DNA of 64,000 nucleotides from Escherichia coli (GTDB lineage Bacteria > Pseudomonadota > Gammaproteobacteria > Enterobacterales > Enterobacteriaceae), in NCBI RefSeq assembly GCF_003018235.1, contig NZ_CP027437.1; one strand, 5' to 3'. The notes below the pieces were generated by a model. It searched no databases. It was not told the DNA's origin and saw only the letters and a program-made list of their open reading frames with translations. The stretch's first letter is position 1. The number at the start of each line of letters is the position of its first letter. This document shows, piece by piece, positions 34,489 through 45,800 of this stretch. A program made the translations under genes and the position numbers.

Positions 34489-36153
34489 ATGTGTTCAATT
34501 TTTGGCGTATTCGATATCAAAACAGACGCAGTTGAGCTGCGTAAGAAAGCACTCGAGCTGTCACGCCTGATGCGTCATCGTGGCCCGGACTGGTCCGGTA
34601 TTTATGCCAGCGATAACGCCATTCTCGCCCACGAACGTCTGTCCATTGTTGACGTTAACGCGGGGGCGCAACCTCTCTACAACCAACAAAAAACTCATGT
34701 GCTGGCGGTAAACGGTGAAATCTACAACCACCAGGCACTGCGCGCCGAATATGGCGATCGTTATCAGTTCCAGACCGGGTCTGACTGTGAAGTGATCCTC
34801 GCGCTGTATCAGGAAAAAGGGCCGGAATTTCTTGACGACTTGCAGGGCATGTTTGCCTTTGCCCTGTACGACAGCGAAAAAGATGCCTACCTGATTGGTC
34901 GCGACCATCTGGGGATCATCCCACTGTATATGGGCTATGACGAACATGGTCAGCTGTATGTGGCCTCAGAAATGAAAGCCCTGGTGCCGGTATGCCGCAC
35001 GATTAAAGAGTTCCCGGCGGGGAGCTATTTGTGGAGTCAGGACGGCGAAATCCGTTCTTATTATCACCGCAACTGGTTCGACTTTGATGCAGTGAAAGAT
35101 AACGTGACCGACAAAAACGAGCTGCGTCAGGCACTGGAAGATTCCGTTAAAAGCCATCTGATGTCTGATGTGCCTTACGGTGTGCTGCTTTCTGGTGGTC
35201 TGGATTCCTCAATTATTTCCGCGATCACCAAGAAATACGCCGCCCGTCGCGTGGAAGATCAGGAACGTTCTGAAGCCTGGTGGCCGCAGTTACACTCCTT
35301 TGCTGTAGGTCTGCCGGGTTCACCAGATCTGAAAGCAGCCCAGGAAGTGGCAAACCATCTGGGTACGGTGCATCACGAAATTCACTTCACTGTACAGGAA
35401 GGTCTGGACGCCATCCGCGACGTGATTTACCACATCGAAACCTATGATGTGACCACTATTCGCGCTTCAACACCGATGTATTTAATGTCGCGTAAGATCA
35501 AAGCGATGGGCATTAAAATGGTGCTGTCCGGTGAAGGTTCTGATGAAGTGTTTGGCGGTTATCTTTACTTCCACAAAGCACCGAATGCCAAAGAACTGCA
35601 TGAAGAGACGGTGCGTAAACTGCTGGCCCTGCATATGTATGACTGCGCGCGTGCCAACAAAGCGATGTCAGCCTGGGGCGTGGAAGCACGCGTTCCGTTC
35701 CTCGACAAAAAATTCCTTGATGTGGCGATGCGCATTAACCCACAGGATAAAATGTGCGGTAACGGCAAAATGGAAAAACACATCCTGCGTGAATGTTTTG
35801 AAGCATATCTGCCCGCAAGCGTGGCCTGGCGGCAGAAAGAGCAGTTCTCCGATGGCGTCGGTTACAGTTGGATTGACACCCTGAAAGAAGTAGCGGCGCA
35901 GCAGGTTTCTGATCAACAGCTGGAAACTGCCCGCTTCCGCTTCCCGTACAACACGCCGACGTCCAAAGAAGCGTATCTGTACCGGGAGATCTTTGAAGAA
36001 CTGTTCCCGCTTCCGAGCGCCGCTGAGTGCGTGCCGGGCGGCCCTTCCGTCGCGTGTTCTTCCGCTAAAGCGATCGAGTGGGATGAGGCGTTCAAGAAAA
36101 TGGACGATCCGTCTGGTCGTGCGGTTGGTGTTCACCAGTCGGCGTATAAGTAA
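34489..36153 (+). CDS. asnB: Asparagine synthetase B (554 aa)
   Basis: ATG at 34489 gives MCSIFGV (N-terminal nucleophile Cys2) and SGGLDSS PP-loop; the 27-aa ORF-track extension is rejected. Confidence 0.97.
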   Translation: MCSIFGVFDIKTDAVELRKKALELSRLMRHRGPDWSGIYASDNAILAHERLSIVDVNAGAQPLYNQQKTHVLAVNGEIYNHQALRAEYGDRYQFQTGSDCEVILALYQEKGPEFLDDLQGMFAFALYDSEKDAYLIGRDHLGIIPLYMGYDEHGQLYVASEMKALVPVCRTIKEFPAGSYLWSQDGEIRSYYHRNWFDFDAVKDNVTDKNELRQALEDSVKSHLMSDVPYGVLLSGGLDSSIISAITKKYAARRVEDQERSEAWWPQLHSFAVGLPGSPDLKAAQEVANHLGTVHHEIHFTVQEGLDAIRDVIYHIETYDVTTIRASTPMYLMSRKIKAMGIKMVLSGEGSDEVFGGYLYFHKAPNAKELHEETVRKLLALHMYDCARANKAMSAWGVEARVPFLDKKFLDVAMRINPQDKMCGNGKMEKHILRECFEAYLPASVAWRQKEQFSDGVGYSWIDTLKEVAAQQVSDQQLETARFRFPYNTPTSKEAYLYREIFEELFPLPSAAECVPGGPSVACSSAKAIEWDEAFKKMDDPSGRAVGVHQSAYK

Positions 36154-36166
36154 GAAATGCGGTACT

Positions 36167-36192
36167 GCCCCGGAGAAATCCGGGGCTGTTTC
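36167..36192 (+). terminator. Intrinsic terminator after asnB
   Basis: GCCCCGG-AGAAAT-CCGGGGC hairpin followed by TGTTT. Confidence 0.55.
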
Positions 36193-36464
36193 AGTTATTG
36201 AGCTGCTTGTTGATTCTGATATGCAGTAAGGAAATGTTCCGGTTTTGCCACATCACTGTTTGACAATTCATCACTGTAGGCCAGTACTTCATAGATTAAT
36301 TTCCCACCACTATTGTTGAATTCCGAATTTCATCCTGTATGACAAAAGAATGGCTGTAGGGTGGGGAAAAAACACAAAGTAAACAATAATTGACGAATAT
36401 AGCGCCACGCTGTTCGCAACCTAACCAAACAGTCACTTTCGAGCAATTTTCCTTGAAAAAGAGG

Positions 36465-36500
36465 TTGACGCTGCAAGGCTCTATACGCATAATGCGCCCC
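36465..36500 (+). promoter_or_regulatory. Promoter of the metT tRNA operon (stringent-type)
   Basis: TTGACG, 17-bp spacer, CATAAT, then GC-rich discriminator GCGCCCC, about 35 bp before the first tRNA. Confidence 0.6.
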
Positions 36501-36533
36501 GCAACGCCGATAAGGTATCGCGAAAAAAAAGAT

Positions 36534-36610
36534 GGCTACGTAGCTCAGTTGGTTAGAGCACATCACTCATAATGATGGGGTCACAGGTTCGAATCCCGTC
36601 GTAGCCACCA
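36534..36610 (+). tRNA. metT: tRNA-Met (elongator, anticodon CAU)
   Basis: 77-nt GGCTACGTAGCTCAGTTGGTTAGAGCACATCACTCATAATGATGGGGTCACAGGTTCGAATCCCGTCGTAGCCACCA with encoded CCA. Confidence 0.95.
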
Positions 36611-36620
36611 TCTTTTTTTT

Positions 36621-36705
36621 GCGGGAGTGGCGAAATTGGTAGACGCACCAGATTTAGGTTCTGGCGCCGCAAGGTGTGCGAGTTCAAGTCTCGCCTCCCG
36701 CACCA
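36621..36705 (+). tRNA. leuW: tRNA-Leu (anticodon UAG), class II with long variable arm
   Basis: 85-nt GCGGGAGTGGCGAAATTGGTAGACGCACCAGATTTAGGTTCTGG...CGCACCA. Confidence 0.95.
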
Positions 36706-36728
36706 TTCACCAGAAAGCGTTGTACGGA

Positions 36729-36803
36729 TGGGGTATCGCCAAGCGGTAAGGCACCGGTTTTTGATACCGGCATTCCCTGGTTCGAATCCAGGTACCCCAG
36801 CCA
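36729..36803 (+). tRNA. glnU: tRNA-Gln (anticodon UUG)
   Basis: 75-nt TGGGGTATCGCCAAGCGGTAAGGCACCGGTTTTTGATACCGG...CCAGCCA. Confidence 0.95.
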
Positions 36804-36837
36804 TCTTCTTCGAGTAAGCGGTTCACCGCCCGGTTAT

Positions 36838-36912
36838 TGGGGTATCGCCAAGCGGTAAGGCACCGGTTTTTGATACCGGCATTCCCTGGTTCGAATCCAG
36901 GTACCCCAGCCA
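36838..36912 (+). tRNA. glnW: tRNA-Gln (anticodon UUG), second copy
   Basis: Identical to the glnU sequence. Confidence 0.95.
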
Positions 36913-36927
36913 TCGAAGAAACAATCT

Positions 36928-37004
36928 GGCTACGTAGCTCAGTTGGTTAGAGCACATCACTCATAATGATGGGGTCACAGGTTCGAATCCCGTCGTAGCC
37001 ACCA
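36928..37004 (+). tRNA. metU: tRNA-Met (elongator, anticodon CAU), second copy
   Basis: Identical to the metT sequence. Confidence 0.95.
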
Positions 37005-37052
37005 AATTCTGAATGTGTCGAATATGTTCGGCAAATTCAAAAACCAATTTGT

Positions 37053-37127
37053 TGGGGTATCGCCAAGCGGTAAGGCACCGGATTCTGATTCCGGCATTCC
37101 GAGGTTCGAATCCTCGTACCCCAGCCA
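37053..37127 (+). tRNA. glnV: tRNA-Gln (anticodon CUG)
   Basis: 75-nt TGGGGTATCGCCAAGCGGTAAGGCACCGGATTCTGATTCCGG...CCAGCCA. Confidence 0.95.
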
Positions 37128-37164
37128 ATTTATTCAAGACGCTTACCTTGTAAGTGCACCCAGT

Positions 37165-37239
37165 TGGGGTATCGCCAAGCGGTAAGGCACCGGATTCTGA
37201 TTCCGGCATTCCGAGGTTCGAATCCTCGTACCCCAGCCA
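37165..37239 (+). tRNA. glnX: tRNA-Gln (anticodon CUG), second copy
   Basis: Identical to the glnV sequence. Confidence 0.95.
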
Positions 37240-37243
37240 CATT

Positions 37244-37272
37244 AAAAAAGCTCGCTTCGGCGAGCTTTTTGC
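37244..37272 (+). terminator. Intrinsic terminator of the tRNA operon
   Basis: AGCTCGC-TTCG-GCGAGCT hairpin flanked by an A-run and followed by TTTTT. Confidence 0.8.
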
Positions 37273-37289
37273 TTTTCTGCGTATATTCA

Positions 37290-37385
37290 ATGTCGAATGC
37301 GATGTTGACACGTCTTATCCTTCAAAGTCGGATGCGACGCTGATGCGTCTTATCCGACCTACAGTTGGCATGCATCCGGCAATGT
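37290..37385. repeat. REP-like palindromic units (BIME-like)
   Basis: Repeated (G)ATGCG..CGTCTTATCC units and GTCGGATGCGACGCTGATGCGTCTTATCCGACCTAC between the tRNA terminator and the ubiF 3' end. Confidence 0.5.
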
Positions 37386-37392
37386 TGTAAGG

Positions 37393-38568
37393 CTACAACC
37401 CTAACGCATATTTCAGCGCCTGACGTTTCAACATGCCAGCACGCTCCGCCGCCATCAAACCAAGATTACGCACAAAACGCAGCGGCGGCAGATTATTACT
37501 GAATCCGGCATAAAACAGATCCATACCACTTTGCATAATGAAGTTATCCGCCATGCGCCGCATCTGGTAACGCTTGAGGACAGGATAACTGGCCCACGCT
37601 TCGCCGTAGCTGCGAGCGTTGACCAGAACGTCAATCAGGGTATCGACATCACGATAACCAAGATTCACCCCCTGCCCCGCCAGCGGATGGATGGTGTGCG
37701 CGGCATCACCCACCAGCGCAAGCCCCGGCTGCACATACTGCAACGCATGGCGGCGTGTCAGCGGAAACGCACCAGCGGCAAGCGGTGTCACGTAACCCAG
37801 ACGCGACGGGAAATGCTTCGCGATTTCTGCCTGTAGCTGCGCCATATTCATATTCTGCAACTGGCGAATGCGCGCCGGAGAGTCATACCACACCAGCGAT
37901 GCCCAGTTATCAAACAACGGCAGAAACGCACGCGGTCCGTCCGGGGTAAATTGCTGCCAGGTGCTGTCGCCGGGATCGTTCTCACACTGGACGCTAATCA
38001 ACATACACGACTGTGCATACTGCCAGGCATGAACGCCAATTCCCGCCATCTGCCGCACCTGCGAATTTGCGCCGTCGGCACCAATCACCAGCTTCGCGCG
38101 GATCGTTTCACCGCCCTTCAGTTCCAGCTCCTGAAGATCATTATGGCGATGCAGCGCAATCAGCGAGCCTGGCACACGTAACGTTACTTTCGGATGTGCT
38201 TCCAGCGCCTGCCACAGCGCCTGTTGCAGGACTGTGTTTTCCACCATATAGCCAAGCAGCGGCAGCTTAAGTTCAGCGGCATCAAACACCACATGCGCCG
38301 TTTCCCACTCCCACGTTTCCAGTCTGCGGTAAGGATGGCAACGCATAGCCTGTACTGCATCCCAGACCCCTAACCCTTTAAGCAATGATACCGAAGCAGC
38401 GCTGATCGCCGAGATCCGCACGTCCGGTTGGCTATCAGCGACAAACGGCGCTGGTTCTGCGTGCTCGATCACCGTTACCGCAAATCCATGCTGTGCCAGC
38501 CCCAGCGCCAGTGCGCCGCCGACCATTCCTCCGCCGACAATGGCAATTTCCGTTGGTTGATTTGTCAT
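37393..38568 (-). CDS. ubiF: UbiF, ubiquinone biosynthesis flavin monooxygenase (391 aa)
   Basis: ATG at 38568 gives MTNQPTEIAIVGGGMVGGALALG (FAD-binding GxGxxG); the ORF-track start two codons upstream is a TTG. Confidence 0.93.
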   Translation of the reverse strand: MTNQPTEIAIVGGGMVGGALALGLAQHGFAVTVIEHAEPAPFVADSQPDVRISAISAASVSLLKGLGVWDAVQAMRCHPYRRLETWEWETAHVVFDAAELKLPLLGYMVENTVLQQALWQALEAHPKVTLRVPGSLIALHRHNDLQELELKGGETIRAKLVIGADGANSQVRQMAGIGVHAWQYAQSCMLISVQCENDPGDSTWQQFTPDGPRAFLPLFDNWASLVWYDSPARIRQLQNMNMAQLQAEIAKHFPSRLGYVTPLAAGAFPLTRRHALQYVQPGLALVGDAAHTIHPLAGQGVNLGYRDVDTLIDVLVNARSYGEAWASYPVLKRYQMRRMADNFIMQSGMDLFYAGFSNNLPPLRFVRNLGLMAAERAGMLKRQALKYALGL

Positions 38569-44722: not shown

Positions 44723-45631
44723 ATGCAATTACGTAAACCTGCCACAGCAATCCTGGCCTTGGCGCTTTCCGCAGGACTGGCACAGGCAGATGACGCCGCC
44801 CCGGCAGCGGGCAGTACGCTGGACAAAATCGCCAAAAACGGTGTGATTGTCGTCGGTCACCGTGAATCTTCAGTACCTTTCTCTTATTACGACAATCAGC
44901 AAAAAGTGGTGGGTTACTCGCAGGATTACTCCAACGCCATTGTTGAAGCAGTGAAAAAGAAACTCAACAAACCGGACTTGCAGGTAAAACTGATTCCGAT
45001 CACCTCACAAAACCGTATTCCACTGCTGCAAAACGGCACTTTCGATTTTGAATGTGGTTCTACCACCAACAACGTCGAACGCCAAAAACAGGCGGCTTTC
45101 TCTGACACTATTTTCGTGGTCGGTACGCGCCTTCTGACCAAAAAGGGCGGCGATATCAAAGATTTTGCCGACCTGAAAGGCAAAGCCGTAGTCGTCACTT
45201 CCGGCACTACCTCTGAAGTTTTGCTCAACAAACTGAATGAAGAGCAAAAAATGAATATGCGAATTATCAGCGCCAAAGATCACGGTGACTCTTTCCGTAC
45301 CCTGGAAAGCGGTCGTGCCGTTGCCTTTATGATGGATGATGCTCTGCTGGCTGGTGAACGTGCGAAAGCGAAGAAACCAGACAACTGGGAAATCGTCGGC
45401 AAGCCGCAGTCTCAGGAAGCCTACGGTTGCATGTTGCGTAAAGACGATCCGCAGTTCAAAAAGCTGATGGATGACACCATCGCGCAGGTGCAGACCTCCG
45501 GTGAAGCGGAAAAATGGTTTGATAAATGGTTCAAAAATCCAATTCCGCCGAAAAACCTGAACATGAATTTCGAACTGTCAGACGAAATGAAAGCACTGTT
45601 CAAAGAACCGAATGACAAGGCACTGAACTAA
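44723..45631 (+). CDS. gltI: GltI, glutamate/aspartate periplasmic binding protein (302 aa)
   Basis: ATG at 44723 after AAGGAG; signal peptide MQLRKPATAILALALSAGLAQA. Confidence 0.95.
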   Translation: MQLRKPATAILALALSAGLAQADDAAPAAGSTLDKIAKNGVIVVGHRESSVPFSYYDNQQKVVGYSQDYSNAIVEAVKKKLNKPDLQVKLIPITSQNRIPLLQNGTFDFECGSTTNNVERQKQAAFSDTIFVVGTRLLTKKGGDIKDFADLKGKAVVVTSGTTSEVLLNKLNEEQKMNMRIISAKDHGDSFRTLESGRAVAFMMDDALLAGERAKAKKPDNWEIVGKPQSQEAYGCMLRKDDPQFKKLMDDTIAQVQTSGEAEKWFDKWFKNPIPPKNLNMNFELSDEMKALFKEPNDKALN

Positions 45632-45788
45632 TTACAAGAACCAGGGGCGGAAATTCCAGCCCTCTCGATTGTTACGTAGCACGGACAGACTATACGCCTG
45701 ATGGTCGTTCCCCATCGGGCCTGAAAACCGCAATACGCTGGGTAACAATCTTCGAGGGTAGCAGTTAACGCTGCTACCCTCTTTTTTC
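45632..45788 (+). ncRNA. sroC: SroC sRNA (processed gltI-gltJ spacer, GcvB sponge)
   Basis: Whole gltI-gltJ intergenic spacer, ending in GAGGGTAGCAG-TTAACG-CTGCTACCCTC hairpin plus TTTTTT (45754-45788). Assigned from recalled K-12 location; 5' end approximate. Confidence 0.55.
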
Positions 45789-45800
45789 TGGAGTAGATTT

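Follow-up and report, generated by a model that had tools for sequence, protein, structure and literature searches.

The 64-kb stretch of Escherichia coli DNA analyzed here (the window) contains exactly seven tRNA genes as called by ARAGORN, all of them on the plus strand between positions 36534 and 37239. The same seven genes are matched by Rfam RF00005 with scores of 57.6 to 71.1 bits, where the gathering score is 29, and the two methods agree on the series Met, Leu(UAG), Gln(UUG) twice, Met, and Gln(CUG) twice that an earlier sequence-only reading of this DNA had proposed. The cluster begins with metT (36534–36610), an elongator tRNA-Met(CAU) gene equal to metT of K-12, followed by leuW (36621–36705), which encodes tRNA-Leu(UAG). 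Two tRNA-Gln(UUG) genes, glnU (36729–36803) and glnW (36838–36912), precede a second elongator tRNA-Met(CAU) gene, metU (36928–37004), and the cluster closes with two tRNA-Gln(CUG) genes, glnV (37053–37127), the supE locus, and glnX (37165–37239). The calls for all seven genes agree with the K-12 annotation as well.

Direct full-length comparison shows 100% identity within each of the pairs metT/metU, glnU/glnW, and glnV/glnX, as had been claimed. The two kinds of Gln gene had also been described as differing only in the anticodon arm, which is wrong: seven of the 75 positions distinguish Gln(UUG) from Gln(CUG) (30, 33, 38, 49, 50, 62, and 63), and four of them lie in the T arm. In the predicted cloverleaf, position 33 is the wobble base, and positions 30 and 38 form the loop-proximal pair of the anticodon stem, which is T-A in Gln(UUG) and A-T in Gln(CUG). 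The remaining differences fall on two T-stem pairs, 49–63, which changes from C-G to G-C, and 50–62, which changes from T-A to A-T, and all three altered pairs are fully compensated.

Upstream of metT, a predicted sigma-70 promoter, metTp, occupies positions 36465–36493 on the plus strand. Its −35 hexamer, TTGACG, starts at 36465, and its −10 hexamer, CATAAT, lies at 36488–36493; together the hexamers agree with the consensus at 10 of 12 positions, and their 17-nt spacing falls within the accepted 16 to 18 nt. The G+C-rich discriminator GCGCCCC follows directly. This is the promoter and discriminator that had been named from the sequence, and the string TTGACG-17-CATAAT was the sole promoter-like site that our scan returned within 36100–37500. 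The 100 nt preceding the first Met gene were aligned for the window and 17 further species, 16 of the total being Enterobacterales (the window counted among them) and two Pasteurellaceae. All 16 Enterobacterales share, without exception, the TTGAC of the −35 hexamer, GCATAAT, and GCGCCCCGCAACGCCG, and the 17-nt spacer is constant in length and variable in sequence. The sequence is almost unchanged in both Pasteurellaceae, which have GCATAAT-ACGCCCCGCAAAGCCGAT. Fixed hexamers and a fixed discriminator around a free spacer are the pattern that a functional promoter predicts, and this phylogenetic footprinting strongly backs the putative promoter. Directly 5′ of the −35 hexamer lies the A/T-rich tract AGCAATTTTCCTTGAAAAAGAGG (36443–36464, plus strand), which is possibly an UP element; a GAAAAAG or AAAAAAG run abutting the hexamer on this side is kept in all 18 aligned species. 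A G+C-rich discriminator is a sequence hallmark of stringently controlled stable-RNA promoters, and the GCGCCCC of metTp suggests that it would be subject to ppGpp/DksA (stringent) control.

The discriminator and the ~33-nt 5′ leader, which ends in AAAAAAAAGAT, together span 36494–36533 on the plus strand. A probe for the 5′ leader detects precursors, and a ~125-nt metT species with an unprocessed 5′ end builds up in rnpA49 (PMC2241853). The size of this species would fit a transcription start ~33 nt upstream of metT, a few bases past CATAAT.

At the other end of the cluster, scan, folding, and conservation all point to a Rho-independent terminator (37245–37279, plus strand) of the form AAAAAGCTCGC-TTCG-GCGAGCTTTTT followed by GCTTTTCTG. 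Its hairpin (37245–37270) comprises 11 pairs and is followed by GCTTTTCTGC; the predicted fold has a free energy of −16.4 kcal/mol (z = −3.87), and 0 of 200 shuffled sequences were as stable, in agreement with the strong terminator originally described. A G+C-rich hairpin and T-run after the last Gln gene are kept in most of the Enterobacterales aligned, with compensated changes in the stem between species, such as GCTCGC/GCGAGC versus GCCCGC/GCGGGC. The hairpin has been probed experimentally as the terminator of the operon (PMC2241853).

Beyond the terminator, a repeat search and consensus matching identified two direct REP-like units on the plus strand (37286–37362), a degenerate one at 37286–37320 and a canonical one at ~37327–37362. 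The canonical unit matches the imperfect ~35-nt palindrome consensus GCCGGATGCG...GCGTCTTATCCGGCCTAC, and the strict REP core GCGTCTTATCCGRCCTAC occurs once in the 64-kb window, at 37345–37362, with none expected in shuffled sequence. Positions 37286–37320 and 37321–37355 form a direct 35-nt repeat with 83% identity, the region 37285–37380 folds with z = −3.21, and a change in the REP stem, GTCGG/CCGAC, reads as compensated in the sequence. Both units point the same way, and the inverted, alternating orientation that REPs take in classical BIMEs was looked for downstream of the operon and is absent. The REP cluster that had been placed directly downstream of the operon thus comes down to one canonical REP and one degenerate direct copy, a pair for which the term cluster is an overstatement. 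The K-12 record lists no REP feature in this interval, so the consensus match alone underlies the REP call.

We identify the seven-gene cluster as the metT tRNA operon of E. coli, historically supB-E, with a probability of about 97%, and no observation speaks against this identity. The metT operon carries the classic supE/supB suppressor loci. A 1.3-kb interval containing the cluster is matched in 5,424 of 5,426 complete E. coli genomes, and the features annotated under the match are asnB, two tRNA-Met genes, one tRNA-Leu gene, four tRNA-Gln genes, and ubiF. In K-12 MG1655, the interval holds glnX, glnV, metU, glnW, glnU, leuW, and metT (b0664–b0673) flanked by ubiF and asnB, and the operon in the window likewise lies between asnB and ubiF. 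The 22 kb around it are colinear with E. coli chromosomes, with nagE, glnS, asnB, miaB, lnt, and other genes in place; identity over this colinear stretch reaches 99.3%, which places the window on an Escherichia chromosome. The genome collection contains no exact match to the window, the best being at 99.2 to 99.3%.

The comparison with the K-12 operon is closest within the genes themselves. All seven agree base for base and keep their order and strand with respect to asnB and ubiF, and a three-way alignment of the window, K-12, and Ecol_545 contains zero differences within any tRNA gene. The promoter hexamers, discriminator, and terminator are shared with K-12 as well, whereas differences are confined to the spacers, the flanks, and the REPs. 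The metT–leuW spacer measures 10 nt in the window, 9 nt in K-12, and 8 nt in Ecol_545; the metU–glnV spacer differs between the window and K-12 by one substitution and one single-base indel; and the REP region differs from that of K-12 by several substitutions. The operon is already known and has been in the literature since 1981, its first sequencing and description being credited to Nakajima, Ozeki and Shimura (1981, Cell 23:239) as it is listed in reference 32 of PMC4041420, and its processing pathway has already been dissected.

Northern blots with nine probes in K-12 derivatives defined a full-length transcript consisting of the 5′ leader, the seven tRNAs, and the Rho-independent terminator (Mohanty and Kushner, PMC2241853). 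The same study attributed removal of the terminator and separation of the distal tRNAs primarily to RNase E, found that the five upstream tRNAs are separated by RNase P cuts at their mature 5′ ends, and noted that an intact terminator inhibits RNase P processing. With one promoter-like site, one terminator, and genes identical to those of the northern-blotted K-12 operon, the window bears out the proposal that a single promoter drives all seven genes. Given this identity, co-transcription and processing by RNase E and RNase P would probably apply to the operon in the window too: RNase E would strip the terminator and separate the distal glnV and glnX, RNase P would cut at each mature 5′ end and release the upstream tRNAs, and exonucleases would shorten the 3′ ends as far as the encoded CCA.

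The transcription unit is undeletable, and all genes with the anticodons CAU (elongator Met), UAG, UUG, and CUG lie within it (PMC11480407); metT and metU encode an identical elongator tRNA-Met (PMC6265465). The operon is essential because every gene for elongator tRNA-Met, tRNA-Leu(UAG), tRNA-Gln(UUG), and tRNA-Gln(CUG) sits there.

Across metT, the end of the leader is complementary to the metT–leuW spacer, TCTTTTTTTT (36611–36620, plus strand), forming an inverted repeat with 13 of 13 positions paired (36523–36535 versus 36608–36620). The T-run of this spacer is polymorphic in E. coli, with 8 to 10 T depending on the strain. A search of the alignment for covariation in the leader/trailer pairing around metT yielded no scorable compensatory changes because both sides are conserved and consist of A/T runs. 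It is conceivable, although in our judgment a long shot, that the conserved AAAAAAAAGAT/TCTTTTTTTT pairing and the slippage-prone T-run would build an extended acceptor helix with a U-run after it, a structure that modulates RNase P access or causes partial termination after metT, and that switching of the Gln genes among one, two, and three copies would be adaptive, fast dosage control and not neutral churn. Were this joint reading true, the leader/spacer structure would tune the output of tRNA-Met relative to the downstream tRNAs.

To place the cluster among related species, we anchored a scan on the single-copy Leu(UAG) core, took one genome per species for a total of 120 loci, and read the surrounding clusters with ARAGORN. 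Leu(UAG) is solitary in the Alpha- and Betaproteobacteria and in the Moraxellaceae. The Pasteurellaceae have Met-Leu-Gln(UUG)x2, and the Orbaceae have Met-Leu-Gln-Leu(CAG)-Gln; Vibrionaceae and Aeromonadaceae carry scrambled Met/Leu/Gln arrays. The Morganellaceae show Met-Leu-Gln(UUG)-Met-Gln(CUG) with one or two Gln(UUG) genes and one Gln(CUG) gene, Erwinia shows Met-Leu-Gln(UUG)-Met-Gln(CUG)x2, and Buchnera has Met-Leu-Gln. The full seven genes are present in Citrobacter, E. albertii, Enterobacter, and Mixta, and Superficieibacter has eight, with three Gln(CUG) genes. The Pasteurellaceae cluster shares the first module of the window's operon, and its promoter and discriminator (TTGACG...GCATAAT-ACGCCCCGCAAAGCCGAT) closely resemble those of the window, but it does not have the second, Met-Gln(CUG), module. 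These arrangements point to the Met-Gln(CUG) module as having been added in Enterobacterales to a more ancient Met-Leu-Gln(UUG) core, and they suggest a stepwise build-up of the operon from solitary Leu(UAG) to Met-Leu-Gln-Gln and then, in Enterobacterales, to the added Met-Gln(CUG). An internal duplication with a later change of anticodon could have produced the second module.

In most of the other species that we examined, the paralogs match each other exactly, including cases in which their sequence differs from that of E. coli. The Photorhabdus genes, for example, are identical to those of E. coli at 73 of 77 positions for Met and 68 of 75 for Gln(UUG), and both copies are alike within Photorhabdus. 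Identity within species despite divergence between them is a signature of concerted evolution and implies exchange between copies. We infer that homologous recombination between the repeats, by unequal crossing-over or gene conversion, would keep the identical paralogs alike and let them vary in number.

Copy number was compared across the 5,426 complete E. coli genomes with junction-specific queries, of which a normal genome covers less than 80% in one piece and a recombinant 100%. Variants appear at every repeat pair, and the repeats, which had been singled out as potential recombination substrates, thus have recombinant junctions in public E. coli genomes at all three pairs. The one-copy junction occurs in 71 genomes for Gln(UUG) and in 152 for Gln(CUG), and the Met x Met deletion junction occurs in 8; these deletion counts are upper bounds because 13 assemblies that lack leuW look collapsed. 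Three-copy junctions are found in up to 37 genomes for Gln(UUG) and up to 28 for Gln(CUG). The Met x Met duplication junction is present in at least 7 genomes when only one-piece matches are counted; the 80% coverage threshold gave 5,285 apparent hits, a number that is unusable because two normal pieces were joined. By annotation, STK78-E carries [Met-Leu-Gln]x3-Met-Gln and Origami2-DE3 carries Met-Leu-Gln-Gln-Gln-Met-Leu-Gln-Met-Gln-Gln, both with 11 tRNAs. EPEC E2348/69, in two independent assemblies, and the type strain, ATCC 11775, have a six-gene form, Met-Leu-Gln-Gln-Met-Gln. These share the locus, the promoter, and the first five genes with the operon in the window but carry a single Gln(CUG) gene where the window has two.

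As a control, we counted leuW, which occurs once in 5,413 of the 5,426 genomes and is missing from the other 13, although these assemblies are classed as complete. Two of the 13 are 536, whose operon reads Met-Gln-Gln, and MC1061, whose operon reads Met-Gln. These deletions would leave no Leu(UAG) or Gln(UUG) gene at all and, given the essentiality data, are best read as assembly collapses. We also considered whether the 8 genomes with a Met x Met deletion represent natural variation and rejected that reading, in view of the 13 assemblies that lack leuW entirely.

Two other ways of reading the locus bear on whether it is one recombining operon. The cluster might be two adjacent operons, with a second promoter before metU driving metU-glnV-glnX. 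An RNA species of this composition with the terminator attached (species III) does accumulate in rne-1 (PMC2241853), and the Pasteurellaceae have only the first module, which makes the second an evolutionary add-on. Species III, however, begins at the mature 5′ end of metU and vanishes in rnpA49 (PMC2241853), which marks it as a product of RNase P cleavage instead of a primary transcript. Both the leader and the terminator probes, moreover, hybridize with the full-length band I (PMC2241853), the glnW–metU spacer is only 15 nt, and the promoter scan finds no site inside the cluster, so that a second promoter is hardly credible and we retain the single operon. A different challenge is that the copy-number differences among strains are wholly assembly artifacts and that the seven-gene structure is fixed, its repeats undergoing no appreciable recombination. 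The absence of leuW from 13 complete assemblies, though its transcription unit is undeletable (PMC11480407), speaks for artifact in those cases, as do the collapsed operons of 536, MC1061, and HS13-1, which would remove all Leu(UAG) and Gln(UUG) genes; several of the variant records, furthermore, are laboratory strains from single sequencing projects. Yet the two independent E2348/69 assemblies and ATCC 11775 have exactly the same one-copy Gln(CUG) form, and such reproducible six-gene cases indicate that real variants exist. One, two, or three copies also occur at the same positions in related species, homogenization of paralogs within other species requires exchange between copies, and the repeat units, spaced 109 to 394 bp apart, are short compared with modern reads. 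We therefore regard a wholly artifactual origin as very improbable and favor recombination between the repeats, with some collapsed assemblies among the counts.

How the repeats arose is a more evenly balanced question. The operon had been described as containing an internal Met-Gln-Gln duplication, and the gene order fits that description. We aligned all 28 spacer pairs semi-globally and compared the scores with 1,000 shuffles, and in no pair did homology survive correction for multiple testing; for the key pair, glnU–glnW versus glnV–glnX, p = 0.23, with no detectable homology. Because the spacers share no detectable homology, gene order alone carries the Met-Gln-Gln duplication, and duplication as a block is unproven. 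Relatives with a single Gln(CUG) gene or without the second module indicate that the duplicated unit could equally be Met-Gln, followed by separate tandem doublings. We give even odds to such a history, in which single-gene tandem duplications (glnU to glnW and glnV to glnX) came after the addition of a smaller Met-Gln unit. The failure of all 28 spacer comparisons accords with it, and the Gln doublings vary by lineage, with Met-Leu-Gln(UUG)x2-Met-Gln(CUG)x1 among the Morganellaceae, one Gln(UUG) gene beside two Gln(CUG) genes in Erwinia, and three Gln(CUG) genes in Superficieibacter. Within E. coli, too, strains switch among one, two, and three copies at each Gln pair independently. On the other hand, gene order by itself fits either history, the spacers may be saturated with change, and identical tandem copies can be miscounted in draft assemblies.

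As a discovery, the cluster carries little weight: the sequence-only reading described a textbook locus correctly apart from one factual error, the confinement of the Gln differences to the anticodon arm, and two overstatements, the REP cluster and the block duplication. The variant frequencies, the collapsed-assembly control, and the cross-species series are useful bookkeeping and unsurprising. Approximately 5% of the E. coli assemblies labeled complete depart from the seven-gene structure at the metT locus. Some of these departures are real and reproducible, as in E2348/69 and the type strain, and others must be collapses in an undeletable unit. This mixture makes the locus a handy quality-control marker and calls for caution when tRNA genes are counted across strains.

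Unequal crossing-over between duplicate tRNA genes has a classic precedent in the tandem tRNA-Tyr genes of E. coli tyrT, which also has a GCGCCCC-type discriminator. Like the metT operon, tyrT combines identical tandem tRNA copies with a G+C-rich discriminator that follows the −10 hexamer; unlike it, tyrT has another amino-acid specificity and sits at another locus. Experimentally evolved tRNA gene duplications have been described in Pseudomonas fluorescens SBW25 (PMC7661048, PMC10954465). SBW25 resembles E. coli in that tRNA copy number changes within a species through duplication, but the SBW25 events are large-scale tandem duplications, whereas the metT operon changes in steps of ~0.1 to 0.4 kb between adjacent identical tRNA genes.

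A perfect 13-nt inverted repeat at the start of the metT operon has one arm at 36523-36535 (AAAAAAAAGATGG) and the other at 36608-36620 (CCATCTTTTTTTT). It allows the end of the 5' leader to pair with the CCA of metT together with the entire metT-leuW spacer. Judged from the sequence, such pairing in the precursor could lengthen the metT acceptor helix. Both arms are conserved across Enterobacterales, and the length of the T-run differs among species as well as among E. coli strains (metT-leuW spacer of 8, 9 or 10 nt). In the Enterobacterales comparison, where the sequence is of low complexity, we saw no true covariation between the leader and spacer arms.

Upstream, directly 3' of the asnB stop codon (36167-36186), the + strand has a terminator-like hairpin (GCCCCGGAGAAATCCGGGGC) with a T-rich tail. 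This is presumably the asnB terminator, shielding the tRNA promoter from read-through. In some E. coli strains, asnB is separated from the metT promoter by an insertion of ≈430 bp, for which the annotation gives a frameshifted hypothetical protein; in E. coli WP8-S18-ESBL-07 it occupies 1046-1482 of the locus L003, corresponding to the asnB-metT spacer at about 36190-36200 of the window, which lacks it.

Elsewhere in the window, glnS and miaB, encoding glutaminyl-tRNA synthetase and a tRNA methylthiotransferase, share 22 kb (26000-48000) with the four tRNA-Gln genes, miaB directly following ubiF in gene order. Apart from tRNA, the sole Rfam match in the window is the small RNA sroC (45627-45789, + strand; RF00369, 174.8 bits).

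Among E. coli assemblies described as "complete," 13 lack leuW altogether, and the metT operon is down to two or three genes in strains 536, MC1061, and HS13-1. The records concerned are NC_008253.1 (locus L004), NZ_CP195014.1 (locus L005), and NZ_CP026491.1. Both the missing leuW genes and the shortened operons probably reflect assemblies that collapsed across the Met repeats, and they would skew tRNA gene counts.

Vibrionaceae (Enterovibrio and Vibrio; loci L093, L098, and L099) have the three tRNA types of the metT operon in long, scrambled arrays such as Met-Leu-Gln-Met-Leu-Leu-Gln-Leu-Gln-Leu-Gln. The association of Met, Leu(UAG), and Gln therefore predates Enterobacterales, but its order is fluid.
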